This document shows positions 7,366 to 36,875 of a stretch of 64,000 bases of DNA, one piece after another. Each line of letters starts with the position of its first letter. Positions within the stretch are counted from its first letter, which is position 1. The position numbers were made by a program, and so were the translations under genes. Origin of the DNA: a virus; IMG/VR virus record IMGVR_UViG_3300044490_000250, positions 1-64,000 of that record; one strand, given 5' to 3'. The notes below the pieces were generated by a model, which saw only the letters and a program-made list of their open reading frames with translations, was not told the origin of the DNA and did not search any database.

Positions 7366-7366
7366 C

Positions 7367-7987: not shown

Positions 7988-10769
7988 CGTGTGCGCGGAC
8001 TGCCCGCTTCGAGACACAACTCGCGTCGGCCCCAGCGGCCCGCCCCGTGCCGACTTGGCGATTGTCGGCCAGAGTCCCGGCGTGGACGAGGCGCGGCAGG
8101 GGCAGCCGTTTGTGGGCGTCTCTGGGCAGCTGCTGCGGGCCGCGCTGAAGCGGCTCAACGTCGACGCGACGCGGGTGTTCATCGCCAACGCCGTCTCCTG
8201 CGGGCCTCCACCAGACGGCTTCGAGTTCGACCACAAGACGGTCGTGGACTGCGCCCGCCGCCACCTGCACCCGGCGCTGTACGGGGTCCAGCCGAAGGTC
8301 ATCCTGACCCTGGGCAACGAGGCGCATGTTGCTCTCCACCACAGCGGGTCCATGTCGGGGGTCGAGCCGGGAGCGGGCCAGATCAGGTTGTGGGGCAAGG
8401 CGCGGACCGTCCGCGGGCTACACCCGGCGGCGGTGCTGCGTCAGCCTGACTTGTTTGGCGCCTTCTTCGCCTGCCTCGATCGGGCGGTTCAACTGGTGCG
8501 AGGGGAGTTCCGCCCCCTCGTGCTCCCTCGGATGCACGGCACCCTCAGCCGCGATGACTGTGTGGCGAAGCTGCGCCAGCTGCTGCAGCGGGGGGCGCCC
8601 GTAGCGTTTGACATCGAGACGCAGGGTGCATCGAAAACGGAAGCGCTCGACGAGTACCGGGGGGCGCTGGTGGGCGTGGCGTTCTCGGACGGCGACCTCT
8701 CCTTCTTTGTTCCGCTGTGCCACGCGGAGGGTGGGTACGGTGACGACGAGGAGCTGGGTGCTCTGCTCCGGCAGGTCCTCACGGAGCTCCCGACCATCAC
8801 GGCCAACGGCAAGTTCGACTGCCGCTGGATCGAGCGCCACCTGGGCTTCCGCCCCAACCTGACGGACGACGTGCTTCCGATGCACCACCTGTTTGACGAG
8901 ACCCGCCCGCACGGGCTGCAGTACATCAGCCGGTGGCTGCTGAACGCCCCGGACTGGAAGGACGAACTGCAGGAGGCGCTGAACGAGCAGGCACCGGAGC
9001 GCAAGGGCAACCACTACGTGGACCTGCAGTTGCTGGGGCAGTACGCGGCACGGGATGCGTACTGCACTTGGCGCTGCTGCGACACCATGCGTAACCACCC
9101 GCGCTTCTTCTCGTTTCTGCACCACTCGCCGATTCCGCTGTACACCGACCTCACACAGCCTTTGCTGAGTGTCCTACTCGACATCGAGACGGCCGGCCTG
9201 CGCGTGGACCGAGAGGCGCTGGCCCCGACGCACGACGCGATGCAGCGGTACATCCAGCAAGCCGACGCCGCCCTGAACGCGGTGGCGTTTGGCGGCGTCT
9301 CGCTCAGCGCCATCCGCCCGCCGATGATCCACAAGCGTCTTCAGCAGCGGGTGGAGCAGGCTCAGGAGAAGCACCCCGACTGGGGGGTGTCGTGGGATGG
9401 GCGGGGCGCCCCCAAGGTGGTCCCCTCCAGCAACAAGGCGAAGTCGGCCGCGAAGTGGTTGGACAAGACCGTGGAGTACATGGCCCCGGAGAACCTGGGC
9501 GGGACCACGTACATGGGCCTCGGCATCCAGCCCAGCAGCGACGCCCAGATGCGCTGGGTGCTGTACGAGTGGCTGGGCCTGTCGGCTCCCAAGAAGACAG
9601 ACAGCGGGGAGCCGAGTGTCGATCGGTTGAGCCTGGGGGAACTACGGGGTGCGCTGCGCCCCGACCCACTCGGGGACCCGGCCGCCTTCGAACGCGACGA
9701 CGCGGCGGTGCGGGTGATCGAGGCGCTGCAGCAACGTCGCAAGATCGCTAAGCTGGACGGCACCTACGTGCTGCGGTTGCTGAACAAGGGTCTCATAAAA
9801 GACGACGGGCGGGTGCATCCCTACTTTGGGTTCGACCCTGACACCGAAACCGTAGCGCGGACGGGGAGGCTCGCCGCACGAGACCCCAACCTGCAAAACC
9901 AGCCCGAGTCGTTGCGCCCACTGTACGTGCCGGAGCCGGGGTGCAAGTTCATCGAGGCGGACTTCGGGCAGATGGAGCTCCGCTGCTTGGCCTCCATCTC
10001 GCGCGATCGACAACTGCTCGACGCGCTGGCCGCGGAGGATGTACACACCGCGGTCACCAGCCAGATATTCGAGGTGCCCTACGAGCAGGTCGACAAGGAC
10101 CTGCGGAAGACCGGCAAGACCATGAACTTCGCCATCCTCTACGGCATGGGTGCGGGGAAGATGGCCACGACGCTGAACATCACGAAGGAGCGGGCGGAGG
10201 CGCTCATCGCGAAGCACCGGCAGCAGTTCCCTGAGGTGAACCGCCTCATTGACTACACGCACCAGCAGGTCAAGGATGTGGGGTTTGTCGTCAGCCCACT
10301 GGGTCGTGTGCGTCGTCTGCCGGCCGCGTTGTTCCTGAAGGACTTGCCTAAACGCTGGGACGATCTCGATGGGAAGGGAGGGCTGTCTGAATGCCTGCGG
10401 CAAGGGTTTAACTCCCTCGTGCAAGGGCTCGCGGCGGACATCACCAACCTCGCGCTGATCCGTTTGTCGCGAGAGATCACGGGGTATAAGGACTGGTGGC
10501 GGATTGTCAACACCGTTCACGACTCGGTGTTGGTGGAAGTTGAGGCGGGGCGGGCGGAGGAGCTGGCGGAGAAGATGCAGGACGTGCTGACCGCGGAGCC
10601 GTACCCTGGTTTCGGGGTTCCGTTGGTGGTGGACGTGACGATCAACGAGCGGTGGGGCGGGGAGCTGCGGCTGGACAACCTGCTACAAGAAGGGGACGAC
10701 GTTGAGGAAGACGAAGAAGAAGACGAAGGTCTCAGTGATGGAGATGCGGGTCACCGCGAGCCGCATTGA
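7980..10769 (+). CDS. polA: Family A DNA polymerase with N-terminal family-4 uracil-DNA glycosylase domain and 3'-5' exonuclease
   Basis: UDG: CxxC, VGQSPG, PFVG, HPAAVLR. Exo: FDIET, NGKFD, YAARD. Pol: TGRL..PNLQN, ADFGQMELR, KTMNFAILYG, VHDS. Confidence 0.95.
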   Translation: MTDVCADCPLRDTTRVGPSGPPRADLAIVGQSPGVDEARQGQPFVGVSGQLLRAALKRLNVDATRVFIANAVSCGPPPDGFEFDHKTVVDCARRHLHPALYGVQPKVILTLGNEAHVALHHSGSMSGVEPGAGQIRLWGKARTVRGLHPAAVLRQPDLFGAFFACLDRAVQLVRGEFRPLVLPRMHGTLSRDDCVAKLRQLLQRGAPVAFDIETQGASKTEALDEYRGALVGVAFSDGDLSFFVPLCHAEGGYGDDEELGALLRQVLTELPTITANGKFDCRWIERHLGFRPNLTDDVLPMHHLFDETRPHGLQYISRWLLNAPDWKDELQEALNEQAPERKGNHYVDLQLLGQYAARDAYCTWRCCDTMRNHPRFFSFLHHSPIPLYTDLTQPLLSVLLDIETAGLRVDREALAPTHDAMQRYIQQADAALNAVAFGGVSLSAIRPPMIHKRLQQRVEQAQEKHPDWGVSWDGRGAPKVVPSSNKAKSAAKWLDKTVEYMAPENLGGTTYMGLGIQPSSDAQMRWVLYEWLGLSAPKKTDSGEPSVDRLSLGELRGALRPDPLGDPAAFERDDAAVRVIEALQQRRKIAKLDGTYVLRLLNKGLIKDDGRVHPYFGFDPDTETVARTGRLAARDPNLQNQPESLRPLYVPEPGCKFIEADFGQMELRCLASISRDRQLLDALAAEDVHTAVTSQIFEVPYEQVDKDLRKTGKTMNFAILYGMGAGKMATTLNITKERAEALIAKHRQQFPEVNRLIDYTHQQVKDVGFVVSPLGRVRRLPAALFLKDLPKRWDDLDGKGGLSECLRQGFNSLVQGLAADITNLALIRLSREITGYKDWWRIVNTVHDSVLVEVEAGRAEELAEKMQDVLTAEPYPGFGVPLVVDVTINERWGGELRLDNLLQEGDDVEEDEEEDEGLSDGDAGHREPH

Positions 10770-10899
10770 GTCGCCCCACGTTGGGTGGCTGCTGCGACGT
10801 GCGGCTGACGAAATTAGTCGCTTGCGAAAGGCCGAGCGTGTCCGATCGCAGGAGGCTAAGCTACGCGCCACCGACCAACTGACGTTCGGCGCTGAGTAG
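10738..10899 (+). CDS. Small hypothetical protein
   Basis: Short ORF overlapping the polA end. Confidence 0.35.
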
Positions 10900-10966
10900 T
10901 CGAGACGCACCCCGCGCTTTAGCGTGGGTACACGTGCCCCTTGAGTGGGCGTTGGAGGACGGAACC

Positions 10967-11626
10967 ATGCGACGTGGATTCACACTAGTCGAGCTGCTGG
11001 TTGTGATCGCGATTATCGCGATCTTGGCAGCGATCCTGTTTCCCGTGTTCGCGAAGGCGCGCGACAAGGCGAAGGTCCCTTCGTGCGCCAGTAACCTGCA
11101 TCAGGTCGCCCTTGCGATTATGATGTACGTGGAGGACCACGACCGCTTCGGCCCCTATAACGACTGCGGCAACTTCGTCTCAAAGCGCGTCGAAGCCTAC
11201 AGCGCGGCGCGGCAGACCTCAACGCTGTGGTCGTGTCCGTCTGGTGGCTCCTACGCACTCCACCCCTACCGAGGTGGGAAGTGCCGCTCGTCGTCCTGCC
11301 CCAGCGCGCCGCCGTGGAATTACGACTACAACAACTGCGGACGTGTGGTGCACCCCTCTGAGGTAATGCTGATCGCCGACGCGAGCACGAGCATCCCACC
11401 GAAGGCCGAACCTGCCGGGCCCAACTGCTTCATCGATGCGAACGGCAACGGCACTGCCCGACACCTCGGCGTGAACAACATCGCCTACCTGGACGGGCAC
11501 GTTCGTGGTGTCACCCCTGGCGAGATGAGGCGCTCGCTGTCCACCGGAGACGCAGACGCAGACGGTGATGGTCAGCCTGACGGGAAGACCACGGGAGACG
11601 GAGCGTGGTACCGCTGGTACTACTGA
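10967..11626 (+). CDS. Prepilin-type N-terminal cleavage/methylation protein, DUF1559 / H-X9-DG type
   Basis: MRRG^[34 protein letters not shown]; C-terminal [14 protein letters not shown]; GGAGG RBS. Confidence 0.92.
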
Positions 11627-11627
11627 G

Positions 11628-11640
11628 CACACACACACAC
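11628..11640. repeat. (CA)6C microsatellite
   Basis: CACACACACACAC between the pilin stop and the next RBS. Confidence 0.6.
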
Positions 11641-11658
11641 CAAAGGAGACTCGGAGAC

Positions 11659-11898
11659 ATGAACCAGACACAGAAGGCCGTTATCGTCGGAGCCGTTATC
11701 CTCGTGGCGGTGATCCTTGTCGCCGTTCAGGTGCACCATCGGTCTGCCGCGGCGAAGGCCTTGCAGGAACTCGACTCAGCCCCAACTGCCGATGAGGTTC
11801 AGCAGATGACCGTGGACGAGCGCGCCGAACTGAGCGCGCAGCGTCAAGCGGAAGACGCGTTGGCCGGCCCCCCGCCGGGCTCGGAGAAGGGTAGGTAA
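11659..11898 (+). CDS. Small single-TM protein
   Basis: AAGGAG RBS; N-terminal TM helix. Confidence 0.7.
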   Translation: MNQTQKAVIVGAVILVAVILVAVQVHHRSAAAKALQELDSAPTADEVQQMTVDERAELSAQRQAEDALAGPPPGSEKGR

Positions 11899-11901
11899 CC
11901 G

Positions 11902-12885
11902 GTGCATCAGATCGTCCTGCTCGTTGCGACTCTCGTCTCTGCCGACCCGACGCTCTACGGCTGCTACGAGTCGGTCAACCGGTCCATGTACCCGGACCTT
12001 GCGCGTCTGTACTTTCGCGACCAGTACCGTCACGGGATGCGGAACGGGACAGTGAGCGGCAACACCTGCCACGCCTTCGGGCCGAACCAAGTGATCGGCC
12101 TCGCACGGCAGGTTGACATGATGGTGGAGGAGGGGATCGCGACGCCGGGCGCGCCGATGCTGGCGTTGAGCCTGGACCCCAAAGACATCGCGGCGTCGAA
12201 GGCCAGCGCGCGCTACCCGGCGCGCTGGCCTGAGCTGGTCTGCGGCAACGTGGACGAGCCAAACCCGACGCTGATCGGAGCCGTGCGCGCGAACGGGTCG
12301 GCAGCCTGGGCGGCGGGTGTCCGCAGCGGTACAGCGATCGCGGGCTACAACCTCTACCTGGACCCCGAGAGCGTCAAGTACGACGGACACCTTGCCGACT
12401 GGTTGGATATGTGGATCGTGCTGGCGTCAACGTGGCAACCCGACCTGCGCCGGAAGGCGCTGGAGGCGACTGCCGACCTGTGTGCCTACTGGGCGTACCC
12501 GCGCGAGCCCGACCGCGACCGCTACGTGGCCGGGCTGTGGTGCTGGAAGACGAACCCGAAGGTCTTCTACTACTGGGCGTACACACACGACCCGAACACG
12601 GGCATCCTGCCGAACGGCGTCAAGCAGCACGCGAAGGACGACGAGTTCTCGTTCGTGTATCCGTCGCCGACTGGGCCGGTGAGTACCCCGGCGTGGGAAG
12701 CGGCAGCGGAGGGCATTCGGGACCACGAGTTGCTCGACCGGCTGGCGGCGCAGGGCGGGAGTGAGGCATGGCTGTCAGAGCTGGCCGACAGCCTGCCGAC
12801 CGTCTGCCCCGTTCCGCCGAAGCCGGTGCCGTTCACAGACTGGAAGCGGTTGCGACGTGAATGCCTGAGGAGGCTGCACGGATGA
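11902..12885 (+). CDS. Secreted GH123/DUF4091-like glycoside hydrolase homolog
   Basis: Signal-peptide-like N-terminus; VDEP; FYYWAY; STPAWEAAAEGIRDHELL resembles the DUF4091 S.RWE..REG..D motif. Confidence 0.6.
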   Translation: MHQIVLLVATLVSADPTLYGCYESVNRSMYPDLARLYFRDQYRHGMRNGTVSGNTCHAFGPNQVIGLARQVDMMVEEGIATPGAPMLALSLDPKDIAASKASARYPARWPELVCGNVDEPNPTLIGAVRANGSAAWAAGVRSGTAIAGYNLYLDPESVKYDGHLADWLDMWIVLASTWQPDLRRKALEATADLCAYWAYPREPDRDRYVAGLWCWKTNPKVFYYWAYTHDPNTGILPNGVKQHAKDDEFSFVYPSPTGPVSTPAWEAAAEGIRDHELLDRLAAQGGSEAWLSELADSLPTVCPVPPKPVPFTDWKRLRRECLRRLHG

Positions 12886-13934
12886 TCCACTTTGGCTTCT
12901 ACTCTGCCCTGGGCCGGTTCGCCTACCCGTTCCGGTACCGCGAAGTCTACGGACACATGGCCGAGCTCGGCATGACGACCGGCACCGTGGAGGGCGGCTA
13001 CGCGCAACTGTGCCCGCAGGAGCCGCAAGTCGGCATGGTTCTGCAGGTGGAAGCCATGATGGACGCTGGGCTCGCGCGCCCAGGGGAGCCGATGCTGTTC
13101 ATCGCCGACACGGATGTCATTCGGGCCGCCATGCGGGCGAAGGAGCGCAAACTCAAGGAATCGCTGCCCGTGGCCGAGTCCAACCCGAGGCTGATCTACG
13201 ACGCGATGCAGCGGTCAAACCGGCTCCCCTGGCCGGCGCCGGTGTTGCACATCGCCGACGACCCGGCGCCGGTTGCGGGGATGCTCGATTGGCTCGCCCG
13301 CGAGCGCCTCAAGGCGCACAACTGCCACTTCCAGGTCGGCGGGAACCTCGCCGGGTACTTCCTGATGGAGGCGAAGACCGTCCGTGAGGGCGAGCCTCCG
13401 CAGACGCTCGGAGAGCAACTGGACGTGTGGATCGTCACCGCGAAGACGTGGCAGCAGGACACGGCAAAGAACGCCCGCGCCTTCGGCAAGCGCCTCTGGG
13501 CGCTGCACACCGACGGCTCGACCGGCAGCTACGAGAGGATGCGGTACCTGGGCCTGTGGGCCTGGGCCAACGGGCCGGAGCAAGTCCTGGTGTGGTCATG
13601 GACACACACCGCCGAGACGATGGTGCGGTGCGACGGCTCCCTGTGTGTGCCCAAGGACGACCACCACACCTACGCGATCCCGTCGCCGGATGGCTGGCAC
13701 GACACGCCGGGGCTGCTCGGCTACGCACAGGGCGTCAAGGACTGTCGGGCCATCGAGGCCGCAGAGCAGGCCGGGCTCCCGGCGGTCACGGCCTACTTGG
13801 CCGACCTGCGCCGGTCGGTTCCGTTCGCGTTCCCGCGCGAAGGGCGGCCGCTGCCCGCGCCGGAGGTGCGTGGCGAGGCGGTCGTCGCACAACTGGAGAA
13901 GCTGGCGCGCCAAGGACGGAAGAGAGGGGGCTGA
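12882..13934 (+). CDS. Paralog of the preceding GH123/DUF4091-like protein
   Basis: ATGA overlap; collinear motifs HM.E.GM..GTV, ADDP, LDVWIV, GLWAW, VWSWTH, YAQGVKD. Confidence 0.6.
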   Translation: MIHFGFYSALGRFAYPFRYREVYGHMAELGMTTGTVEGGYAQLCPQEPQVGMVLQVEAMMDAGLARPGEPMLFIADTDVIRAAMRAKERKLKESLPVAESNPRLIYDAMQRSNRLPWPAPVLHIADDPAPVAGMLDWLARERLKAHNCHFQVGGNLAGYFLMEAKTVREGEPPQTLGEQLDVWIVTAKTWQQDTAKNARAFGKRLWALHTDGSTGSYERMRYLGLWAWANGPEQVLVWSWTHTAETMVRCDGSLCVPKDDHHTYAIPSPDGWHDTPGLLGYAQGVKDCRAIEAAEQAGLPAVTAYLADLRRSVPFAFPREGRPLPAPEVRGEAVVAQLEKLARQGRKRGG

Positions 13935-13939
13935 GTCCC

Positions 13940-14929
13940 GTGCATCCCGAGCCGCTGCACACACGGTTCCGGTTGTCGCCCTCCGGCCCGGTTCACATCG
14001 GACACGCGGCGTTGGCGTGGCTGTCTCAACAGGCCGCGCGCGCCACAGGCGGGACCTTCACGATCCGCGCGCAGAGCCTGTGGAACTCGCGCAGCGCCGA
14101 GAACTGGAAGAAGTACCAGAAGTGGGCGAAGGAGAACCTGGAGGCGCTGGTCGCCTGCGGCCTCGGGCCGTCTTCGCGCGAGTCGTTCCTCCTGCACGGC
14201 ATGGACCCCCAGTGGGCTCAGCAGCACATGGACGACCGCGCAACGGTCGACTGGTACTGGGAAGGCTGCAACTACGGCATCCCTGGGTTCAGCTTGGCGA
14301 AGCTGTTCGGCGGGTGGCCACCATTGGGCGATGTAGAAGTGGAGGACGACCGGCAAGCCCAGTACCTCGGCCCGCTGGCGCACAGCAGCGTCTACGCACC
14401 CTACGTGCGGATCGCGCAGATCGTGGGGGACATCACTACGGGGCGGAACTGCCTGCTGCGGGGGCAGGACCACTTCCAGGAGAAGGTCTTCGGGGATTAC
14501 TTCTACGCCCTGATCGCCAAGGAGCACTACCGCCTCGGTGATTTCGACCAGAGCGGGAGGTACGCTCCTGTGCAGTATTTCCTGCCCTTCGTGCGGATCG
14601 ACGACGACGCGAAGGTGAGTAGCTCCGACCAGAACACAGGGCGTGGGTTCTTCCTGCGGGACGTACTGGAGGCGGGCGTCCCGAACGAGGCGCTCCACGC
14701 GATGCTCGGCAAGATCATGTTCGGGTCCGTCGAGGCGGCGCAGATCGCCAACGCCACGTGGTCTACGGAGCCGGTCGCCAAGCCCAAGGACGCGACGGGC
14801 GCTGGAGTGTACCGGTACCCGGTGCAGGCCGGCGCCTGCTACGTGGTGGAGAGCCTCATCGTGCGGCAGCCGCGCATCAGCCGCGCCGAGTGGTTGCGTT
14901 TCCTACAGACCAGAGAGGTGCCGGAGTAA
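13940..14929 (+). CDS. Glutamyl-tRNA synthetase catalytic-domain paralog (GluQ-RS-like, degenerate)
   Basis: TRFRLSPSGPVHIGH, GGTFTIR, LLRGQDH, LPFVRIDDDAKVSSS; about 329 aa, no anticodon-binding domain. Confidence 0.8.
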   Translation: MHPEPLHTRFRLSPSGPVHIGHAALAWLSQQAARATGGTFTIRAQSLWNSRSAENWKKYQKWAKENLEALVACGLGPSSRESFLLHGMDPQWAQQHMDDRATVDWYWEGCNYGIPGFSLAKLFGGWPPLGDVEVEDDRQAQYLGPLAHSSVYAPYVRIAQIVGDITTGRNCLLRGQDHFQEKVFGDYFYALIAKEHYRLGDFDQSGRYAPVQYFLPFVRIDDDAKVSSSDQNTGRGFFLRDVLEAGVPNEALHAMLGKIMFGSVEAAQIANATWSTEPVAKPKDATGAGVYRYPVQAGACYVVESLIVRQPRISRAEWLRFLQTREVPE

Positions 14930-15828
14930 TGGTGCTTCGCACATGCCACTACCCCCCAGGGGACTGGCCGTGGACCACGTGGCCCGCCGGCCGGCTGTTT
15001 CTGCTCCCTCTGTGTGTCACCCCAGGGGGAGGTCGGGTGGACGCGCTGGCCCCGGGGGCGTTCGTCCAGCTGATGCGGCGTGGGCTGGAGCAAGACGCGG
15101 CGGTGGCCGCCCAGCCAGACTTACAGTGCATCAGTCGCAGCGACGTGCTCTGCGTACCCTTAGTGCACGAGGTCCTCTCTCGCTCCAGACGTGATTTACT
15201 GCTGGAGGAGCGTGAGGACTACGACGAGACCTGGGGGCTGGTGACGGAGTTGGGGCCGAAGTTGAGGGGCGTGTTGGTGGGGAACCAGCAAGGCAACTCG
15301 GAGTTGTCGTTCCGCCACCAGTACGGAACGTGGAGCGGGGACGCGGCGGGCAACTGCCGTGCCGTTGCCAAGTTCGTGCTAGAGCTCGGTGGACGGCTGC
15401 GCGAGGCGGGCGTGCAGCCGTTCTTCGGGGTCATCAACTGGGACTTGATCCAGGATGCCTACCTGGGCGGCGAGGTTGTGTTGCGCGCGCTGAACAAGGT
15501 GGGAGCCATCAACATCTGTTTTTGTGGGTACGGGCTCGCGCCCGGCGCCTTCATCAAGCCCCACAAGGACCACCCTCAGGACTGTCGGCGCTGGTTGTGT
15601 GAGCTGGAGGGTAGAGGGTGGAGAGACCCAGCGGATGATGAGGCCTTCCCCACCATGAGTCAGTACCTTCGTCGGGGCCAGTTCTGGTCGGGGCTGTGCG
15701 GCACCGAGGGAGTGCGCGCGGGGAACCTCACGATCCTCTCCCAGTTTGGCTTCCAAGGGTACGCCACAAAGGTGGACGAGCCGGCCCGCGACGATCTGGT
15801 GCGGGAGTTCGGTGAGTGGTGGAAATAG
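14929..15828 (+). CDS. Hypothetical protein (possible alpha/beta barrel)
   Basis: TAATG coupling to the GluRS-like gene; 299 aa. Confidence 0.65.
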   Translation: MVLRTCHYPPGDWPWTTWPAGRLFLLPLCVTPGGGRVDALAPGAFVQLMRRGLEQDAAVAAQPDLQCISRSDVLCVPLVHEVLSRSRRDLLLEEREDYDETWGLVTELGPKLRGVLVGNQQGNSELSFRHQYGTWSGDAAGNCRAVAKFVLELGGRLREAGVQPFFGVINWDLIQDAYLGGEVVLRALNKVGAINICFCGYGLAPGAFIKPHKDHPQDCRRWLCELEGRGWRDPADDEAFPTMSQYLRRGQFWSGLCGTEGVRAGNLTILSQFGFQGYATKVDEPARDDLVREFGEWWK

Positions 15829-15858
15829 CGCGTAGCGCAGATACGAGAGATTGAGACG

Positions 15859-16431
15859 ATGCCCCCCGACCCAGACTTCACGAACCCTGAGGCTGAGTAC
15901 CGCTGGCTCACCAGCTTGACGCCTGGGCAACGAACGCCCGATCGGACGACACGGGAGCTGCAGCTGAAGACGCACCTCCTGTCCGAGGCGGCTCGACGGC
16001 TGCACCAGCAGTACGATCTGCCGGCCCTCCAGCGCCTCCCTCCAGACCACGACCTCTGCTACCAGTTGCTGCGCGTGGCGGCGGACGTGCGCCTGCCGGA
16101 AGACCCGGCGATCCTGTCGAGCATGAGCAGCAACCTCTACCTCGAACTCAACAACCTGCGCGCCAACGTCGACTGCTACCGCGCCGCAGCCGCCGAGACA
16201 GCCACTGTGCTGGCCCGGCAGGTGGACATGCTCAAGGCGTTCTGGGCGACGGTCTGTCCGCTCGACGAGAAGTTCCGGCGCGACGCGGTGTTCGAACACG
16301 AGGCCGCGGCCGTCCTGGACATCCAGGCGAAAGCGCAAGCCCTCTCGGCCACCGCCGAGACGGTTCGGTGGTCGTTGCTGAATCACATCACCACGATCGA
16401 TCGTGTGTTGGGGAGGAACAACCGGGACTAA
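15859..16431 (+). CDS. Hypothetical helical protein
   Basis: 190-aa ORF with phage-like codon use. Confidence 0.6.
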   Translation: MPPDPDFTNPEAEYRWLTSLTPGQRTPDRTTRELQLKTHLLSEAARRLHQQYDLPALQRLPPDHDLCYQLLRVAADVRLPEDPAILSSMSSNLYLELNNLRANVDCYRAAAAETATVLARQVDMLKAFWATVCPLDEKFRRDAVFEHEAAAVLDIQAKAQALSATAETVRWSLLNHITTIDRVLGRNNRD

Positions 16432-16447
16432 AAACGTGGCAGCGGCG

Positions 16448-16477
16448 TTGACAATCACGTGGGAATATGCTTATAGC
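16448..16477 (+). promoter_or_regulatory. Sigma70-type promoter
   Basis: TTGACA-N17/18-(T)TATAG(C) with TG; intergenic. Confidence 0.55.
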
Positions 16478-16522
16478 CTAATGGCCCGAAAACAGGGCGA
16501 CACCGCATAAGGAGAAGCACGC

Positions 16523-17326
16523 ATGAGCATGGTAGGTGGAGTGAACATCGGAGGCCAGCCGGAGTACGCAGAGAAGGGACGTAGCCGTTGGCGCTTGAGT
16601 CTGGGGGATGTCGACGGGTCGAAGAGCTACTTTCGGATTCTCACGATCGATCAGGTCCCGGGGCTGAGTGCCATCACCCCCACCGTCCCGCGGTACTACT
16701 ACGCCCACGCCGTTCCGTGGCAGGACCTGGGGCGCAAGAAGGGCCAGTGGCCGATTCCTGTGTACTGCCTCTGCTCCCCCACTGCCCCCAACCCCAAGGG
16801 GGACTGGCCGAAGGACCCGGCGGGGGCGCAGGAGTGCGCGTCCATCGTACTCCCCAGCGGCCGTGGGCTGCACAGCTACGGGGAACCGGACCCGTTCGCG
16901 GTCTTCGCGGTCTACCAGTACACCGACAGCAACACGCCGGTGGAGGAACTTCGCAACTGGTCGTTCAAGGCGACGCAGCACCCCAAGGGGATGATGGAGC
17001 GCTTTCGGGCGCTGTTCCGTGAAAGCGCCGAGAACGGCGGGAACGCGAACAACATGGTCTGGTCGCTGGAGCGGCAGGGCCAGTTCCTCAGCTTGGGGTG
17101 TCAGGTCGCACTCCCCAACTCGAACTACGCTGAGCGCTTCCCGTGGGGCCCGCAGCAGCAGGCCAACGTTGCTCGCTGCGCCCCCGACTGTCTCGCGTGG
17201 TTCCTGCCGAAGCACACCAAGGAGAGCATCCTGGAAGACCTGCGGATCGAAAACAAGGCCGGCGTGACCTACGACGGCGGCACCGGCGGCCCCGGCGCGC
17301 AGTCGACGGTTCAGATGGAGGTGTGA
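16523..17326 (+). CDS. Hypothetical protein, possible ssDNA-binding protein
   Basis: AAGGAG RBS; aromatic-rich; lies upstream of the RecA-like gene (function inferred from position). Confidence 0.5.
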   Translation: MSMVGGVNIGGQPEYAEKGRSRWRLSLGDVDGSKSYFRILTIDQVPGLSAITPTVPRYYYAHAVPWQDLGRKKGQWPIPVYCLCSPTAPNPKGDWPKDPAGAQECASIVLPSGRGLHSYGEPDPFAVFAVYQYTDSNTPVEELRNWSFKATQHPKGMMERFRALFRESAENGGNANNMVWSLERQGQFLSLGCQVALPNSNYAERFPWGPQQQANVARCAPDCLAWFLPKHTKESILEDLRIENKAGVTYDGGTGGPGAQSTVQMEV

Positions 17327-30828: not shown

Positions 30829-31770
30829 TCAGGACCAGCAAAAGCATCCAGTGCGCGCAGCGTGGGAAGCGGTGTCCACGGCGGCCTGGACTGCGTGGTG
30901 TAGGCTGAACCCCTGAACCAGCTCCGACGTGAACTTGGCCACAAACACGTCGCCGGCTCCACAGGTGTACCGGCCTGGAGTGGCATCCCCCGGCCGCACC
31001 CACACTGGCTGGGGGATCGGGGTGCCGCAGGAGTTGTACACAGCCCCGCTTGCGCCTTGCGTCACCACCACCGCCCCCAACCTGCGGTACCGTGCAAAGG
31101 CGGTCGTCCTGCCGGCGAGAGCGTGCAGCACGTCCACAGGGCGCGCCGGTCTGCGCGCCGACCGGCGGCGTTGGACTCTGGCGACAGCGTCTGCGTACTC
31201 GGCGGCGTTGGGGGTGGCGTAGTCCACGTGGCAAGGCAGGGGGATCAGCGGTGGCGTCTTGATGTCCACCACCACCAGCACCTCCTTCGGGCAGCCCTCA
31301 AGCAGCCAGCCCAGCCGCTCCAGCGCCCCACGGCCGTACCCACTCACCACGAGCGCGGCCACGCCAGTCCAATCAAGCGGCGCCGAGTAGACGGCCTCTC
31401 GGGAGGTGGCGGGGTTGTAGTCCCAGCGCCCAGAGATGACCGGGGTGCCGTCAGGTTCTCGGCGACCCGTGCGTATGCGAAGCAGCGTCTCCCCGGCTCG
31501 CAGGTAACTCCTCCGCTGCACTCCCACAGCCTGTAGAAGCTGATCCAGAGTGTCCCCGTAGGCGTCGGTGCCCAACTCGGCGCAGAGAAACACCGGGTGG
31601 TAGTTGACAGCGAGCACCCGTGCGACGTTGGATGCCATCCCCGGGCTGTACTCTGGAGGCGTGGCCATCTCGTGGAGGATGCAGGGGGCCTCCTGAGCCA
31701 GCCTTTGCGGAGCCCCCATCATCCAAACGTCCAAAGCTACGTCACCCAGCACGACAATCTTCGGTGGCAT
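30829..31770 (-). CDS. PfkB-family sugar kinase, HldE/RfaE (heptose-7-P kinase)-like
   Basis: VVLGDVALD..G..RLAQEAP, PGMASNVA, SGYGRG, TPNAAE, TCGAGD. Confidence 0.8.
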   Translation of the reverse strand: MPPKIVVLGDVALDVWMMGAPQRLAQEAPCILHEMATPPEYSPGMASNVARVLAVNYHPVFLCAELGTDAYGDTLDQLLQAVGVQRRSYLRAGETLLRIRTGRREPDGTPVISGRWDYNPATSREAVYSAPLDWTGVAALVVSGYGRGALERLGWLLEGCPKEVLVVVDIKTPPLIPLPCHVDYATPNAAEYADAVARVQRRRSARRPARPVDVLHALAGRTTAFARYRRLGAVVVTQGASGAVYNSCGTPIPQPVWVRPGDATPGRYTCGAGDVFVAKFTSELVQGFSLHHAVQAAVDTASHAARTGCFCWS

Positions 31771-31825
31771 CAGTGAGCGCCTCCCGTTTCTGAGACATCT
31801 ACGAACCGCGTGTTGAGCAGCGGGT

Positions 31826-32677
31826 CTACAGTCGGGCACCCTGCTCGTCGTAGTTCATCAGCAGCAGCTCCGTGCGGCGCGCCTCCGAGGGCTGGTGAGA
31901 GCGACTGGCGCAGAACACGTCACGCTCGACACGCCTCCAGCCGGCGTAGAGTGTGTCCACCAAAGGGCAGATGTAGTTGCTGACCATGACGCGAGCCTGA
32001 CACTCGTTCAGCGCAGCGGCGAGCCGACGATCGTCAGCCTCAACCCACGGGTATCGGTAGTACGGGTTCGTGTCGGAGTCGCGGTAGACGGTTGTGGTGT
32101 ACGGGCTGTCCACGTAGAATAGGGTGTCGCGGTGGTCGTACTTGGTGATGATCTTCGCGAAGTCCAGATTCTCGAAGAGCACCTCTTGGATGCGTTGACT
32201 GACCGCCGCGATCCTGGCTGTCGCGCTACGAAACGCCCGCGGGGCCCAGCTCTTCTGGTCCAGGTCCGGGTGGTGGTGGAACCCCGCGTTGTCCTTGGCG
32301 ATCCAGGAGCTAAACGAGGTTCGTAACAGGTAGAAGAACCGAACCGCGCGCTCCATGTCGCTCAGTTGGCGCCAGTCGTCTGGGGTGTAGAGGTACTGAC
32401 GCCGCCACTGCCGGAAACGGTTCCGGGAGTAGGGCAGCCGGTTGAGGTGCGAGATCAGCTCTTCCGGCCGGAGGCGCACCACTTCCCAGAGGTTGATGAG
32501 GCTGTCATCCAGGTCGTTGACCACCTCACGCACCTCACTGTTGTAGGGCCGGGCCAGCAGGATACCGCAGGCACCGGCAAACGGCTCGACGTACATTCGA
32601 TAATCTGTGGGCAGATGCGGGAGAATCCACCGAGCGTGGCTGGCCTTCCCACCCACCCAGGCAAACGGGGGTCTCAC
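31826..32677 (-). CDS. dam: Dam-type (D12 class) DNA adenine methyltransferase
   Basis: WVGGK, YVEPFAG, NDLD..LIN, FYVDSPY, ELLLMNY. Confidence 0.88.
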   Translation of the reverse strand: MRPPFAWVGGKASHARWILPHLPTDYRMYVEPFAGACGILLARPYNSEVREVVNDLDDSLINLWEVVRLRPEELISHLNRLPYSRNRFRQWRRQYLYTPDDWRQLSDMERAVRFFYLLRTSFSSWIAKDNAGFHHHPDLDQKSWAPRAFRSATARIAAVSQRIQEVLFENLDFAKIITKYDHRDTLFYVDSPYTTTVYRDSDTNPYYRYPWVEADDRRLAAALNECQARVMVSNYICPLVDTLYAGWRRVERDVFCASRSHQPSEARRTELLLMNYDEQGARL

Positions 32678-33699
32678 AGAGCAAGCACCTCTCGGTAGAG
32701 ATCAACGCACGCCGCCGCAGCGTCATCCCACCTGTAGAGGCGGGCCCGACGCGCCACGTCGAAGTTGCGGAGCTGGCAGCTCTCGGGCTGCCAAGTCATC
32801 ATCTGCGCCATCCCGGTAATGACCGCGGCGGGGTCGAACGGGTTGGCGTACTCCGCCGCCGTACCGAAGACTTCCCGCTCCGACGCTTGGTTTCCTACCA
32901 GGACGGGCAGCCCCACCGTCATCATCTCCAGCGCGGCCAGCCCGGGGGTCTCGTAAAGGCTGACCTGCCAGCCGAAGCGCGCGGAGGCCATCGCCGCCGC
33001 CAGACAGGCCCGGTCCAGGATGGGGGGCCAGAACGAAACGCGCCCTTGACGCTCACGACGAGCGTGGCCGATCACCACCCCTTTGCACTTGAGCTCGTCG
33101 CACGCCTCAACGAAGAGCCACCCGTTCTTGCGGTCTTCGAAGCGGCCCACGTAGAGCCACGCGCCCTGCAGGTCCTCCTTCAGCTGAGGGTCCAACGGCG
33201 CCTGCGCCATGCCAAACAGGTCCTCCACGGCGTTGTACTGCACCCGCCACGGAGGACAGGCACCCTCAAGCATCTGAGCGATGACGCCCTGCTCGGTGTA
33301 GCTGTTCGGCAGCGCGCCGGCGCACGCCCGTAGGAGCTGCGCCAAGTGCCTCTCGTGCCGCATCCCCTCCTCCGTCCCCTCAAGGTACGCCCGCTCCGCA
33401 GAAACCCCAGCACGCTGCTTCTGGTACGTCGCGAAGGCGTGCATGGGCCAGTAGATGGTGCTCAGCACAAACTGCTTGCGGTGTTCCTCGCACCAGTCCA
33501 CCACCTGCTGCTCCGCGCGACTGCTCGCGAAGCGCACAAGGTGGATAATGTCAGCGTCGACCGCCTCGGCGATGTCCGCAACTTCGACGTGGCTCACACA
33601 CTGCACGGCGGGGTGCTTCGCCACGGCGCTCACTAGCTGCCGCGCGACCTGTTGGCTTCCACCTAAGGCCCCCGTCGCGCCTACCATGACCACCTTCAT
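32674..33699 (-). CDS. GT4-family glycosyltransferase
   Basis: LSTIYW, LPNS..E, VGRFEDRKN, SLYETPGLAALE. Confidence 0.85.
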   Translation of the reverse strand: MKVVMVGATGALGGSQQVARQLVSAVAKHPAVQCVSHVEVADIAEAVDADIIHLVRFASSRAEQQVVDWCEEHRKQFVLSTIYWPMHAFATYQKQRAGVSAERAYLEGTEEGMRHERHLAQLLRACAGALPNSYTEQGVIAQMLEGACPPWRVQYNAVEDLFGMAQAPLDPQLKEDLQGAWLYVGRFEDRKNGWLFVEACDELKCKGVVIGHARRERQGRVSFWPPILDRACLAAAMASARFGWQVSLYETPGLAALEMMTVGLPVLVGNQASEREVFGTAAEYANPFDPAAVITGMAQMMTWQPESCQLRNFDVARRARLYRWDDAAAACVDLYREVLAL

Positions 33700-34748
33700 A
33701 GCACATCGTCTCCTCTGATTCTCGCAAGGATGCGGGGGGAGTCGCTCCGCACAATCTGTAGATGAGACAGCACGTAGTCCAGCACCTTCAACCGCTGCCA
33801 GGACATCCCGGGGTCCTGCTCCTCCCTGGTCTTACCATAGAACGTTGAGCCGTAGACGAGGGTCTCCTGAGCGTAGAACCACGCCTCCAGCGCGACGTTG
33901 GAGCAGAGCGTCAGCACCTTGATGTGCGGCAGAGACAGGATGCTGTGGATGTTGAGGTCGGCCGCCAGACGACGCGAGTACCCGACAGCCACCGCAGGAC
34001 TCGGGCACCGAGGGTGAGGCTTGAACCACGCACCCTCCCGCTCAGCCGCGCTCCGCAGGTCAAGCAACACCTGCTCGACGTTGGGCTGCACGTAGAGCGC
34101 GTTGTCCCACTCCACCTGCCCGAACCAGACTGTGTCCCCCGGCTCGACCACCGTTTCTCGCAGGGCCACAAGCCGCTGGTGCCCTGGCTTGGTCTGCTGG
34201 AGGCGGCGCCACCACCGCCCGTAGTCACGCACCCGCTGGGTGTGTGGCTCCCAAGAGGCAAACCACTCCGCGCGGTCGAGCGACGCCCCCAACACGTAGT
34301 AGGGCACGTCCCGCGTGATGATGACCGGCACGTCCCCGTCTTGTGAGGGGAAGAGCCCGTTCTCCAGGAAGGCGACAGGGACGCCCGCCTCCGCGGCGGC
34401 GAGCCTTGCACTCCAACTCACCACTTCGTGCGTCGCCCAGATCAGAACCACATCTGGCCGGCTCTCCTCCAGGCGTTGACGCCAGCAGTTCAAGTACCAC
34501 TGCGCGCGCCGCTCCCACCACGGCACAGAGTTGGGGGCGTCACGGTACCGCGAGTAGCGGTGGTTCGCCGCCCACAGCATGTACTGCACCGCACACTGCG
34601 TCAGCGGCTCGATGTCGCCCGCTGCCCCAGAGACAGGCGGCACGTCGGCCCACACCTCCACTGCCTCCCCTTCCCGCATCAGCGACTGCGCCAGGGGGGC
34701 CATGACGTGCTTCTCGATGTCGTAGTTCTCAGGGACCAGCGCGATCAT
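33696..34748 (-). CDS. KpsS/KpsC-like capsule glycosyltransferase (beta-Kdo transferase-like)
   Basis: FLENGLFP, FGQVEWD, FKPHP, TLCSNVALEAW, YGSTFYG. Confidence 0.75.
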   Translation of the reverse strand: MIALVPENYDIEKHVMAPLAQSLMREGEAVEVWADVPPVSGAAGDIEPLTQCAVQYMLWAANHRYSRYRDAPNSVPWWERRAQWYLNCWRQRLEESRPDVVLIWATHEVVSWSARLAAAEAGVPVAFLENGLFPSQDGDVPVIITRDVPYYVLGASLDRAEWFASWEPHTQRVRDYGRWWRRLQQTKPGHQRLVALRETVVEPGDTVWFGQVEWDNALYVQPNVEQVLLDLRSAAEREGAWFKPHPRCPSPAVAVGYSRRLAADLNIHSILSLPHIKVLTLCSNVALEAWFYAQETLVYGSTFYGKTREEQDPGMSWQRLKVLDYVLSHLQIVRSDSPRILARIRGDDVL

Positions 34749-35020
34749 CGGACGACCTTGGCGAGGTAGTGGCCACACTCAGGGGCCACGGCCTCTTCCA
34801 GCCACTCCTGCATACTCTCAGCGAGCGTCCCCCAGTCAACCGGCTGCGGCAGCGCCTCAGCGAGGTCCTGCAGCATCTGGGTGAGCTGGTCCGCGACGGT
34901 GTGGTAGTCCACACACTTAGGCTGAAGGATGCACGTGGCACAAGCGGGGACCCCAGGCTGCGCTGGCAGCGGGTCGCCCTGGTACGTGTTGGGCAGCGCC
35001 CTTTCGAGTTGGAGATACAC
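34745..35020 (-). CDS. Small Cys-rich protein
   Basis: CATCILQPKC (Cx2Cx5C). Confidence 0.55.
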   Translation of the reverse strand: MYLQLERALPNTYQGDPLPAQPGVPACATCILQPKCVDYHTVADQLTQMLQDLAEALPQPVDWGTLAESMQEWLEEAVAPECGHYLAKVVR

Positions 35021-35022
35021 TC

Positions 35023-35895
35023 CTACACCTCCCTCATCCCTACGTCAGTGGCCACCCTGCGTGCCCACACCCACACGGGGGTGAGTAGCTCGCCCACTGA
35101 GTAGTCCTGTTCAGTCAGCCAGTAGTCGAACATCCACTGTGCATCCCAGTGCGGGGGGATGTCGGTGGCCCACTCATAGGGAGCGGGGTGCACCCACGTC
35201 ACGATCAACGGAAGACCACGGTGGAGTTGCTTCAGCGTGTCGCAAAAGTCGTGCATGGCGGCGCGCGCCTGCGGCGAAGTCCACGCGCCCGGCACCACTG
35301 TCCAGCAGTTGACGAGCGTCTGGTGGCCCGCCGTCAACAGGGCGCGTAAGGTGTCCAACGGGTCGGGCTGTTCCTCCACGCCGCTGTTCCACCGGCGGAG
35401 CTCCGGGGTGAGCCCCTTGATGCTCAACTCAGGGAACACCCGTCGCGGGTACACTGGGATGCGCTCCGGGTGGGCACCGTTGGTGTTGACGACCACGATG
35501 TGGTTGTCCCCCGCGGCGTGCTGCAGTGCCGTAATCAACTCGGGGAGCTCGGGTTCCAACGTGGGCTCTCCTCCGCTCACCCGCCACACCGGGCAGTCCC
35601 CCGCCGTCTGCACAAAGTCGTCCACGATCTCCCGCGGCGTCCGCAGTACCGTCTCTGTGCTACGCCCCCTCCAGTAGCATCCGTGACACCGCATCTGGCA
35701 GGTTGCGGTGTCGATCATCGCCACGTCGTTTGCCTCCGCGATCGTGTACGCGCGGGGCAGCCACGCACACGCCACTTCCGGCCACGGAGCGAATGCCTCC
35801 ACGTCCTCCGGCTCCTTGTAGTACGTCTTGACTCGCACGATGTCGCTTCGCTTGCCGTTCCCGCTGCGCTGCTCCGGCACCACTTCGAGTATCAT
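35023..35895 (-). CDS. Radical SAM protein
   Basis: CQMRCHGC (Cx3Cx2C), RVSGGEP, NTNG, LSIKG. Confidence 0.9.
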   Translation of the reverse strand: MILEVVPEQRSGNGKRSDIVRVKTYYKEPEDVEAFAPWPEVACAWLPRAYTIAEANDVAMIDTATCQMRCHGCYWRGRSTETVLRTPREIVDDFVQTAGDCPVWRVSGGEPTLEPELPELITALQHAAGDNHIVVVNTNGAHPERIPVYPRRVFPELSIKGLTPELRRWNSGVEEQPDPLDTLRALLTAGHQTLVNCWTVVPGAWTSPQARAAMHDFCDTLKQLHRGLPLIVTWVHPAPYEWATDIPPHWDAQWMFDYWLTEQDYSVGELLTPVWVWARRVATDVGMREV

Positions 35896-36875
35896 CCGTC
35901 CAGCACCTCATTTAGAGTGACACCTCTGGTCTTCAACAGAAAGTCCACGCCCCGAACGACCCTGTCCACCCTGTGCGCGGTTTGACACCGGGCGCCGCAC
36001 CCAGCCACTTGGTACCGGTACTCGCAAGGAGAGCACGTCAAGTCCTTAGGTTCCAGCGCCAGCAGGGGACCGGGGCAGTCCGGTAGGCGGAGCGCCGCTG
36101 ACGACACCCCCATGAGCGCCAGCAGTTTGATGGGCAGCCCGCCGGCCTTCAGCGCGGCGCACAGATGAAGAGGACTGGAGTCCGCCGAAATGACAACGTC
36201 GCACGCCGCGATGGCCGCCGCGCACTTGCGAAGGGCGCTCCTTCCGTCCATCACAGCGTCCACGGCCGGCGGAGCGTTGTCCCCAATCCACACCACCGAC
36301 CCCCGTTCCTGGAGGGGCGCCACTGCATCGGCAGCCGCCGCCCACCGCCGTTCCGCGGAAGAGGACTCCGCACAGACACCGATCAACGGCCGACGCAGGC
36401 TGCTCAACGAGCGCTGCGCGTCGACCAGCTCCTCGCGTTCGATGTAGTAGTCCAGGTGCAGACTGCTCAGTCGCAGCCCGAGTGCCTCGGCAAACAAGCG
36501 AGCGCGTGGGGTCTGGCAGCATTGAGGGTGGCGCTCCGGGTAGTGGCGTAGATCGGCCAGCACACCGGGCGCGGTGTGGTCCAGCTCACCAAAGTCGCGT
36601 ACCTCATGGACGTTGGGGTTCCCCCGCAGCACCTCGGCGCTTCTGGGGGAAGTGTAGTAGGTCACTCGCAAGCCTGGGTACTGACGTTGCAGCTGGCGCA
36701 GAGCGGGCGTCGTCATTAGCACGTCCCCGGCACCGCCTGGACGCACAATCGACAGCCCCACCTCTTGTGCACGCATCAAGTCCACCGGCAGCAGCACACG
36801 CCGGTCACGTTGACGTAGAAAGGTCTGCACGAAACTCGCAGCTTGGTTGGGGATGTCGGTGCGTTGAAAGCGCAA
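35892..36875 (-). CDS. GT9 (ADP-heptose:LPS heptosyltransferase-like) glycosyltransferase, copy 1
   Basis: RPGGAGDVLMTTPALR, NPNV, RRW, ISADSSPLHL.AA. Confidence 0.85.
   Translation of the reverse strand: MRFQRTDIPNQAASFVQTFLRQRDRRVLLPVDLMRAQEVGLSIVRPGGAGDVLMTTPALRQLQRQYPGLRVTYYTSPRSAEVLRGNPNVHEVRDFGELDHTAPGVLADLRHYPERHPQCCQTPRARLFAEALGLRLSSLHLDYYIEREELVDAQRSLSSLRRPLIGVCAESSSAERRWAAAADAVAPLQERGSVVWIGDNAPPAVDAVMDGRSALRKCAAAIAACDVVISADSSPLHLCAALKAGGLPIKLLALMGVSSAALRLPDCPGPLLALEPKDLTCSPCEYRYQVAGCGARCQTAHRVDRVVRGVDFLLKTRGVTLNEVLDG

Follow-up and report, generated by a model that had tools for sequence, protein, structure and literature searches.

The stretch of DNA analysed here (hereafter the window) comprises the first 64 kb of IMGVR_UViG_3300044490_000250, a 79.6-kb phage record of IMG/VR with 65% G + C and an estimated completeness of 73%. 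Homology searches with a block of six genes on its plus strand, at positions 10967-15828, showed that three of the encoded families occur as a set in about a dozen phage contigs that otherwise have almost nothing in common with the window: a DUF1559/H-X9-DG prepilin (pilin), a GH123-like protein with a predicted export signal, and a protein related to glutamyl-tRNA synthetase (GluRS). These core families stay together while their position and neighbours change, and this is the main argument that they form a functional unit. The module is probably one working unit acting on the host cell surface. We tentatively propose, in a reading that falls somewhat short of probable, that the block is a version of a conserved, horizontally mobile phage module acting in two compartments on a host envelope or pilus glycan that contains N-acetylhexosamine (HexNAc).

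Organization of the six-gene block

Six open reading frames (ORFs), here named G1 to G6, make up the block, and all are on the plus strand:

10967..11626, plus strand: G1, DUF1559/H-X9-DG prepilin of 219 amino acids (aa), ATG start, Pfam matches N_methyl and DUF1559
11659..11898, plus strand: G2, 79 aa, ATG start, one hydrophobic segment (AVIVGAVILVAVILVAV) and a charged C-terminal half
11902..12885, plus strand: G3, GH123-like (beta/alpha)8 protein of 327 aa, Asp-Glu pair in VDEPNP, signal-like N-terminus (MHQIVLLVATLVSA/DP)
12882..13934, plus strand: G4, GH123-like protein of 350 aa without signal peptide, Asp-Asp (ADDPAP) in place of the catalytic pair
13940..14929, plus strand: G5, truncated GluRS/GluQRS-like protein of 329 aa, Rossmann catalytic core only, GTG start, PF00749
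14929..15828, plus strand: G6, 299 aa without signal peptide, family unassigned, possibly a glycosidase-like TIM barrel

The junction gaps from G1 to G6 are, in order, +32, +3, -4, +5 and -1 nucleotides (nt). The widest gap near the block is the 197-nt spacer (10770..10966, plus strand) between G1 and the upstream gene, which encodes a fusion of uracil-DNA glycosylase (UDG) and PolA; the gap after G6 is 30 nt. Putative ribosome-binding sites were found 5′ of the ATG of G1 (GGAGGA, at a distance of 7 nt) and 5′ of that of G2 (AAGGAG). G3 and G4 overlap in an ATGA at 12882, G5 starts with GTG 5 nt past the G4 stop, and G5 and G6 are joined by a TAATG in which the stop codon occupies 14927-14929 and the G6 ATG begins at 14929, not at 14927. 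The G + C content at third codon positions (GC3) is 0.75-0.89 across all six frames, comparable to that of the flanking phage genes, and marks the six frames as coding and compositionally native to the phage; for the small gene G2 the value is 0.75, which supports coding.

A previous sequence-only reading of the window had described six co-oriented genes with small gaps or overlaps, and the ORFs, the ATGA and the TAATG were all located as it claimed. Such packing of co-oriented genes is usual in phages and therefore, taken alone, is not above chance. The reading had further held that none of the six is a standard phage gene and had labelled them as a DUF1559 prepilin, GH123/DUF4091-like paralogs and a GluRS-like gene. 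Both points are supported: PHROG matches are absent for G2 to G6 and no GenBank phage was matched in tblastn searches with G1, G3 and G5, while the labels agree with the Pfam, paralogy, fold and profile evidence presented below.

The core genes recur together in other phages

In a first round of searches, the module genes were compared by tblastn with metagenome contigs, and the ordered gene set was found in three or four of them. Contig L008 carries, in order, the pilin gene, three GH123-like genes, a gene of 100 aa, the GluRS-like gene, a methyltransferase gene and a G6-like gene; L007 carries two GH123-like genes followed by the GluRS-like and G6-like genes; and in L010 the GluRS-like gene comes immediately after the pilin gene, where the contig ends. 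A capsid gene upstream of the module in L010, and holin and amidase genes just downstream of it in L007 and L008, are signs of phage origin. Except for a family 9 glycosyltransferase (GT9), nothing else detectable is common to these three contigs and the window.

In a second round, an alignment of three pilins was used as bait in IMG/VR and the neighbours of the 80 loci obtained were scored with local hidden Markov models. A GH123-like gene was found beside the pilin gene in 10 of the 80 loci (eight of them distinct), and eight or nine of those ten also carry a GluRS-like gene. The pilin and GH123-like loci are L050 (cut by the contig end), L051, L052/L053, L054, L056, L064, L080/L086 and L085, all of which contain the GluRS-like gene except L050, the match in L054 being weak. 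The association depends strongly on the kind of pilin: the GH123-like gene is present in 9/11 loci with a full-length pilin match versus 1/69 with the generic pilin N-terminus alone. The pilin and GluRS-like genes are directly adjacent in L010, L052 and L064. The second-round phages have no other detectable similarity to the window except for the GT9 and, in L056, one tail gene. The sequence-only reading had named, as what would speak against a common system, that the genes never co-occur elsewhere; L007, L008, L010 and the bait loci carry them together, with the order mostly kept.

The location of the module differs between phages. In L050, L051, L064, L080 and L085 it comes immediately behind the portal gene, the protease gene and the major head genes; in L056 it follows the tape measure gene, and in L007 and L008 it is found beside the amidase and holin genes. 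Its description as an insertion after polA is thus true of the window, but not of the phages in which it follows head genes or the tape measure gene or adjoins lysis genes. The notion of a six-gene unit also needs to be narrowed: all six genes are present here, but no counterpart of G2 was found in the related loci that were compared, and G4 and G6 are found in one module type only. The recurring core shown by these comparisons is therefore the pilin, the putatively exported GH123-like protein and the GluRS-like protein.

Contig L056 (32.9 kb) shares two segments with the window at 87-88% nucleotide identity, one covering the mature part of G3 and the other a tail gene by the tape measure gene:

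L056:6648-7585 versus window 11941-12878: G3, 88% identity
L056:11133-12603 versus window 44638-46111, minus strand: tail gene

The pilin (38% identity), GluRS-like and G6-like genes of L056 are divergent from those of the window. The two segments therefore point to recent mosaic exchange within one phage gene pool. Additional genes were also found inserted in the module: a class I methyltransferase gene between the GluRS-like and G6-like genes (L008:10970-11731), a HEAT-repeat gene directly after the GH123-like gene (L080:7811-8362) or after the weak GluRS-like gene (L054:8995-9552), and a gene for a weakly ClpP-like protein (L056:7472-8155).

The pilin and the small membrane protein

G1 has a class III signal sequence (MRRG/FTLVE) that includes Glu5, and the prepilin motif passes both PF07963 (33.5 bits, cut-off 21.2) and TIGR02532 (34.4 bits, cut-off 16.3). 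It also passes PF07596, the DUF1559 family, with 24.4 bits against a cut-off of 23.3, the match covering profile positions 2-40 of 268 only; the H-X9-DG model TIGR04294 scores 13.6 bits, under its cut-off of 19. The H-X9-DG motif itself is present as H166-X9-D176-G177, is invariant in the three phage pilins and is followed by a tail of 30-40 residues. An Asp/Gly-rich, calcium-loop-like stretch precedes the tail in the window and in L008, and the tail of G1 is rich in Trp and Tyr. A Trp/Tyr-rich tail after H-X9-DG is common to the module pilins of L050, L052, L054, L056, L080, L008 (6090-6179) and the window (11540-11626), with endings such as …GAWYRWYY (G1), …GAWWWWWR, …SPWYWWGIQ and …NWQWWTYP. 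Identity of G1 to its orthologues is 47% in L008, about 39% in L010 and, as given above, 38% in L056.

The sequence-only reading had placed the kin of this pilin in Armatimonadota and PVC genomes. The Atlas clusters nearest to G1 (score 0.97-0.98), in which 87-93% of members carry PF07596, are mostly from Armatimonadota, and this offers a lead in favour of that part of the claim.

G2, a single-pass membrane protein by its sequence, matched no family in Pfam, PHROG or NCBIfam, and no counterpart was found by tblastn in L007, L008 or L010.

The GH123-like paralogs

G3 and G4 are paralogs with 28% identity (E 3e-29). Neither has a PHROG match, nor a Pfam match at E 0.1, including GH123_cat. Their larger bacterial relatives reach PF13320 at 17-28 bits (cut-off 23.1), and several of these have weak GH123 domains. 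A profile search found about 9 stand-alone relatives of 310-345 aa and about 250 more distant ones, in which the homologous region forms the C-terminal part of proteins of 400-1000 aa, beginning at residue 100-600.

An AlphaFold 2 (AF2) model of G4, built on an alignment of 48 sequences, reached a predicted local distance difference test value (pLDDT) of 92.8 and a predicted template modelling score (pTM) of 0.91. Comparison of the model with the PDB gave GH123 enzymes as the top matches, with 5fqh of Clostridium perfringens (CpNga123) at Z 20.8 and a root mean square deviation of 4.2 over 316 residues; other glycosidase barrels match at Z about 17, and Foldseek matched the model to GH123 at E 7e-7. 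Profile comparison gave the same result. Profile A4, made from the family and its bacterial relatives, matches NgaDssm (8k2j) at E 8.9e-11 and the entry 8k2l at E 1.3e-7, and profile A3, made from the short phage-type proteins only, matches 8k2f at E 5.7e-4. The DEP column of G3 is in register with the DEP of NgaDssm and NgaP2. The N-terminal beta-sandwich is absent, as the whole 350-aa model of G4 aligns to residues 174-584 only of the CpNga123 chain. The earlier GH123/DUF4091 assignment is thus upheld at the superfamily level, solved GH123 enzymes being the best matches by both fold and profile. Since the beta-sandwich of the characterised enzymes is missing, G3 and G4 are best described, from models and alignments, as a putative minimal GH123 branch, an assignment at superfamily level.

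Consecutive Asp and Glu residues form the catalytic motif of GH123, with Asp as the stabiliser and Glu as the acid/base in substrate-assisted catalysis (PMC11087588). Replacing this Glu by Asp in the characterised enzymes leaves a reduced activity, and replacing the Asp by Glu leaves almost none (PMC11087588). Besides the Asp-Glu (DEP) form of G3 and the Asp-Asp (DDP) form of G4, a third subtype with Glu-Thr (ETP) was found in L008. In the tree, the DDP and ETP forms make up a derived clade nested within the DEP forms, and the window, L007 and L008 each retain one DEP and one DDP copy. The WPE…DEP pattern is kept in 6/9 of the pilin-adjacent GH123-like copies scanned (the copy of L050 is cut by the contig end).

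The start codon of G3 is a GTG, the sole possible start 5′ of the region aligned to homologues; the N-terminal segment is taken to be real because no alternative start codon exists. Clearer Sec-type signals than that of G3 were found in the relatives P0021, P0023 and L008a and in the pilin-adjacent copies of L051, L052, L054, L056, L064, L080 and L085. The DEP-type gene without a signal in L007 (L007:16-1012) is split over two overlapping frames, by a frameshift or an assembly error.

The GluRS-like protein

Recognisable similarity of G5 to aminoacyl-tRNA synthetases is confined to the catalytic core. PF00749 matches residues 9-59 of 329 only, with 30 bits, and G5 fails the NCBIfam equivalog models for GluQRS widely (18-30 bits against cut-offs of 250-380). 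Among 5.8 billion clusters, 12 relatives were found, with 33-48% identity and 40 invariant columns. The family profile matches GluRS structures in three places: the HIGH region, IRGxDH (VIRGEDH in GluRS) and xLSSS (KLSKR in GluRS). HIGH, TGGTF and IRGxDH are invariant in the family, and H19, G21 and H22 are invariant in 13 sequences.

The differences from known enzymes are considerable. Relative to GluRS, the family has a 2-residue deletion before HIGH. Compared with two canonical GluQRS proteins, RIEDTD is changed to R.Q.L, with Gln at the first acidic position; KLSK is changed to K/x-V/L-S-S-S, with KVSSS in G5 itself; and a shorter stretch that has no conserved Cys stands in place of the CP/Zn insertion. 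G5 has about 70 extra C-terminal residues, which are conserved within the family, and has no anticodon-binding domain. Across the family the KMSKS loop reads xLSSS, AAS or GAS, aligned to KLSKR/KLSKS of the GluQRS pair and a GluRS structure. In the wider module-linked set, most GluRS-like proteins retain xxSKx (such as KLSKS in L056 or KISKS in L052); the lysine is lost in the G5 subfamily and in L051.

The glutamate-binding residues of Thermus thermophilus GluRS are Arg5, Ser9, Glu41 and Arg205. In the sequence alignment, the columns corresponding to Arg5 and Ser9, like the Arg within IRGxDH, are fully or almost fully conserved in the G5 family, and the position aligned to Glu41 is Glu or Gln, being Gln in G5.

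Scans of IMG/VR with the single proteins G4 and G5, or with profiles of the G5 (A2) and G6 (A5) families, did not yield close relatives. The only A2 profile match there, L005, was rejected as an ordinary GluQRS in a phage with translation genes, and L006, a match among genome contigs, as a Xanthobacter GluQRS-like gene. In L005, a 100-kb IMG/VR phage, the region 2291-15056 carries a canonical GluQRS gene (PF00749, E 6e-62) directly after EF-Ts, with genes for phosphoribosyl pyrophosphate (PRPP) synthetase, an adenosine phosphosulfate (APS) kinase-cytidylyltransferase fusion and AspRS nearby; this translation-gene island is unrelated to the module. Glutamylation of a queuosine-like DNA base by G5 was also considered and dropped, because neither TGT/DpdA nor QueC was found in the phage record. 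A predicted complex of G5 with G6 scored 0.01.

G6 and the GH53-like family in the same position

A G6-like gene follows the GluRS-like gene in L007, L008 and L056, in L008 with the methyltransferase gene in between. G6 has 3-4 distinct relatives with 40-45% identity. Its look-alikes by protein language model are all barrels of clan GH-A (GH53, GH10/42, Glyco_hydro_cc; score 0.91), which provides a lead to its fold. Foldseek gave nothing at E <=0.001, the weak matches being mostly TIM barrels, and a GH1-like stretch, WD..LQD.Y.GG, was non-significant (E about 1).

In the second module type, the slot after the GluRS-like gene is occupied by another family, here called family X (alignment A8; about 350 aa, no signal). 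Family X has no Pfam match; it resembles the GH53 galactanase 7osk (E 6.6e-5) and has the motifs WExWGE and TEWG. Comparison by hhalign revealed no relation of G6 to the GH123-like family or to family X. The copies of family X are located as follows:

L080:9480-10562 and L080:10507-11493
L064:7457-8503
L052:3995-5440
L051:8914-10356
L085:9935-10696

Two compartments and a proposed function

No signal was found in the G4-type proteins, G6, family X or the GluRS-like proteins, and Sec-type signals are present on the pilin-adjacent GH123-like copies. The N-termini thus show a two-compartment layout, with the pilin and the DE-bearing GH123-like protein presumably exported, and the GluRS-like protein and one or two glycosidase-like barrels presumably cytoplasmic. 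The cytoplasmic barrels are G4 (Asp-Asp) and G6 in the window, and the GH53-like family in the other module type. Genes of glycan metabolism are found repeatedly beside the module: a family 4 glycosyltransferase (GT4) and a GT9 gene lie directly upstream of the L008 pilin gene in the same direction of transcription, the GT9 resembling both GT9s of the window; a GT4 gene lies downstream in L054; L007 has a gene for an RmlD-like sugar-nucleotide reductase; and a methyltransferase gene is located within the L008 module. The role in remodelling the cell surface or pilus that the sequence-only reading had suggested fits the signal-like peptides on the pilin-adjacent GH123-like copies and these repeatedly adjacent glycosyltransferases.

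In the function that we propose, G1 would be cut by the prepilin peptidase of the host, none having been found in the phage record, and would then be built into a type IV pilus or a type II secretion-like fibre of the host, or stay anchored in the inner membrane. G3 would be exported beside it and remove or trim beta-linked HexNAc from a periplasmic or surface glycan, a precursor or product of which G4 and G6 may act on in the cytoplasm. G5 would bind glutamate and ATP and transfer the glutamyl group to an acceptor other than the 3′ end of tRNA, by analogy with GluQRS (queuosine diol) or MshC (amino sugar). The net effect would be a changed cell surface or pilus during infection, which could, for example, block the adsorption of further phages. 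A bolder version, in which the module-linked GluRS paralogs would be a new class of aminoacyl ligases glutamylating a glycan or the pilin-like protein itself and not a tRNA, and would form with the pilin and the GH123-like protein a system that marks a host surface fibre or envelope polysaccharide to control adsorption, is speculative and rather unlikely.

Several observations weigh against the proposed two-compartment function. The second KMSKS lysine is absent (SSS) from G5 and its 12 closest relatives, and ATP-dependent activation by G5 may therefore be weak, different or lost. G4 carries Asp-Asp, and the ETP subtype would, by analogy with the mutant data, be inactive as a GH123 hydrolase. 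The hydrophobic N-terminus of G3 is short (14 aa) and lacks a basic n-region, and the first gene of L007, a relative of DEP type, encodes no signal, as is probably the case for P0024 too. The AF2 model of G6 is too poor to use (pLDDT 50.4). In most of the other phages the module is placed among late structural genes, but here it is in the replication arm. Finally, L052/L053 and L080/L086 are near-duplicate contigs and some of the phages may be related; the independent loci are therefore fewer than the contigs.

The position of the module in other phages bears on one alternative, that the genes are a late aid to the release or protection of progeny. The glycosidases would destroy receptor or envelope glycans from the periplasm and, once holin has acted, from the cytoplasm, the pilin would deliver or anchor the exported enzyme, and the benefit would be easier lysis or virions kept from sticking to debris. 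The modules of L007 and L008 abut amidase and holin genes; those following head genes and that of L056 have the same orientation as the structural genes ahead of them, from which late expression is probable in those phages, and L010 has its capsid gene upstream. Like canonical endolysins, the majority of the barrels have no signal. However, the block in the window is in the replication arm, far from the structural and tailspike region, and it is hard to see what a GluRS-like enzyme would do in lysis, although no other partner is linked to the pilin as faithfully. Late release therefore appears unlikely as the function of the module.

The adjacent glycosyltransferases, RmlD-like gene and methyltransferase suggest the building of a glycan and not its breakdown, and they speak against scavenging of glycans as another function. 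In that explanation DUF1559 would be a membrane-anchored binding protein, the exported GH123-like protein would free HexNAc, and the cytoplasmic barrels would complete the breakdown and feed replication. The Pfam name of the DUF1559 family, SBP_bac_10, and the combination of exported and cytoplasmic glycosidase-like sets are in its favour, and the Trp/Tyr-rich pilin tails could stack on sugars. None of the module loci examined showed a transporter gene, however, and the GluRS-like protein would be left unexplained, which makes scavenging distinctly unlikely.

It is improbable that G5 is a GluQRS-type protein that modifies or binds tRNA, for phage translation or against a tRNA-directed defence, and merely travels with the surface genes. 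Its recognisable relatives are indeed GluRS, GlnRS and GluQRS only, it lacks the anticodon-binding domain as GluQRS does, and bona fide GluQRS genes exist in phages, such as that of L005 by EF-Ts and AspRS. Against this stand the replacement of the CP/Zn insertion by a shorter unrelated stretch, the loss of the second KMSKS lysine, the absence of tRNA and Rfam RNAs from the window and of TGT and QueC from the record, and the linkage to pilin and GH123-like genes over many mosaic contexts, which speaks against hitch-hiking.

That the genes are no functional unit, but independent morons clustered by genome compactness and recombination hot spots, is highly improbable. In favour of it, phage genes are commonly packed in one orientation, G2 lacks a counterpart in the related loci that were compared, the inserts (methyltransferase, HEAT-repeat protein, ClpP-like protein) vary by locus, and the recent exchange with L056 involved G3 only (88% nucleotide identity), the genes around it there being divergent. 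Against it, the three core families occur together in about a dozen contigs at differing positions with the order mostly kept, and the GluRS-like family is otherwise very rare, as the cluster and GenBank searches show.

Phage genome and surroundings of the block

The window has two arms. The minus-strand arm encodes the terminase, portal, tape measure and other structural proteins, and the plus-strand arm encodes a DnaB-like helicase, the UDG-PolA fusion and a UvsX-like recombinase, as well as the six-gene block. Features of note outside the block are the following:

7980-10769, plus strand: UDG-PolA fusion of 929 aa, with a family-4-type uracil-DNA glycosylase domain, a 3′-5′ exonuclease and PolA
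30829..36875, minus strand: second glycan operon, possibly linked, with Pfam matches to PfkB sugar kinase, Dam methylase, two GT4-like proteins, radical SAM and GT9
54840-56033, minus strand: further GT9 of the same phage, beside the capsid genes

The second glycan operon is possibly tied to the cassette, and by association only. It is adjoined, at 25695-29084 on the minus strand, by two genes that probably encode tail fibres or tailspikes, one for a 788-aa protein with a DUF4082 domain and one for a right-handed beta-helix protein of 333 aa.

The relatives of PolA in IMG/VR have no more than 33% identity in the best segment, and cassette genes were found in none of them; the block is therefore not tied to polA. 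Neither a sigma-70-like promoter nor a convincing terminator was found within 10400-17000, and the block therefore looks like part of a long plus-strand transcription unit. No tRNA genes were found by ARAGORN, and no Rfam families, in the window. Neither an integrase nor a prepilin peptidase was found in the record, which is 73% complete by estimate. The source DNA was also present in seven lake-water metagenome DNA runs; there was no RNA run among them.

Comparison with known systems

Features that G5 has in common with GluQRS (YadB) and the GluRS catalytic domain are the Rossmann core of class I, the motifs RF.x.PSG..HIGH, TGGTF and IRGxDH, and the position of the KMSKS loop. Both G5 and GluQRS are about 300 aa long and neither has the anticodon-binding domain. 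In contrast, G5 differs in the RIEDTD and KLSK motifs, the deletion before HIGH, the CP/Zn insertion and the C-terminal extension of about 70 residues. The CP/Zn insertion holds the tRNA end in GluRS and GluQRS. MshC, a CysRS paralog of the mycothiol pathway, joins cysteine to the amino sugar GlcN-Ins in a step that follows the action of a GT4 glycosyltransferase, and it keeps KMSKS. With MshC there is thus a known case of a class I synthetase paralog in which the adenylated amino acid is passed to a sugar and not to a tRNA, and L008 and L054 have GT4 genes beside the module. The comparison is an analogy only, as there is no sequence relationship past the class I fold and inositol or thiol pathway genes are absent here. 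If the proposal is true, a synthetase paralog with a non-tRNA acceptor would join the short list of GluQRS and MshC, now in a virus.

Compared with the GH123/Nga enzymes of groups 1-4 (CpNga123, BvGH123, NgaDssm and NgaP2), the module proteins have the same (beta/alpha)8 barrel and C-terminal helical part, and G3 keeps the Asp-Glu pair. They differ in being 310-350 aa long and not 500-600 aa, in lacking the N-terminal beta-sandwich, in being phage-borne and paired with a pilin and a GluRS-like gene, and in the Asp-Asp (G4) and Glu-Thr variants. If true, this would define a minimal, single-domain GH123 branch without the beta-sandwich.

With the DUF1559/H-X9-DG proteins of Armatimonadota and PVC bacteria and with the type II secretion pseudopilin GspG, G1 has in common the prepilin motif with Glu5, the N-terminal region of DUF1559 and H-X9-DG; it differs in being phage-encoded and in its Trp/Tyr-rich tail after H-X9-DG. 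Genes for a pilus assembly ATPase, platform or peptidase were not found in the phage record. The module would, if the proposal holds, offer a first way into the function of this DUF1559/H-X9-DG family, which is very large in Armatimonadota and PVC bacteria.

Surface conversion and exclusion by phages are known from the Gtr cassettes for O-antigen glucosylation and from Tip and Aqs1 of Pseudomonas phages. Systems of the Gtr type use glycosyltransferases and flippases, and those of the Tip/Aqs1 type are small inhibitors of pilus motors. The effect proposed here would be alike, in that a surface glycan or pilus is changed and adsorption is blocked, but no family is known to be common to them and the module, and the known systems are not known to use a pilin, a glycosidase and a synthetase paralog. 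No described system, PHROG family or GenBank phage with this combination of genes was found, and a search of the literature on DUF1559 and on GluQRS with phage gave nothing relevant to the module. If true, the module would be a new route by which phages that infect little-studied freshwater bacteria alter the surface of their hosts. The linkage of the three families can serve as a marker even if no function is assigned, the pilin bait, and not the enzyme families, having recovered the module across IMG/VR. We therefore regard the module as a candidate for a new kind of system, in which each part comes from a known superfamily and none is an ordinary member of it.

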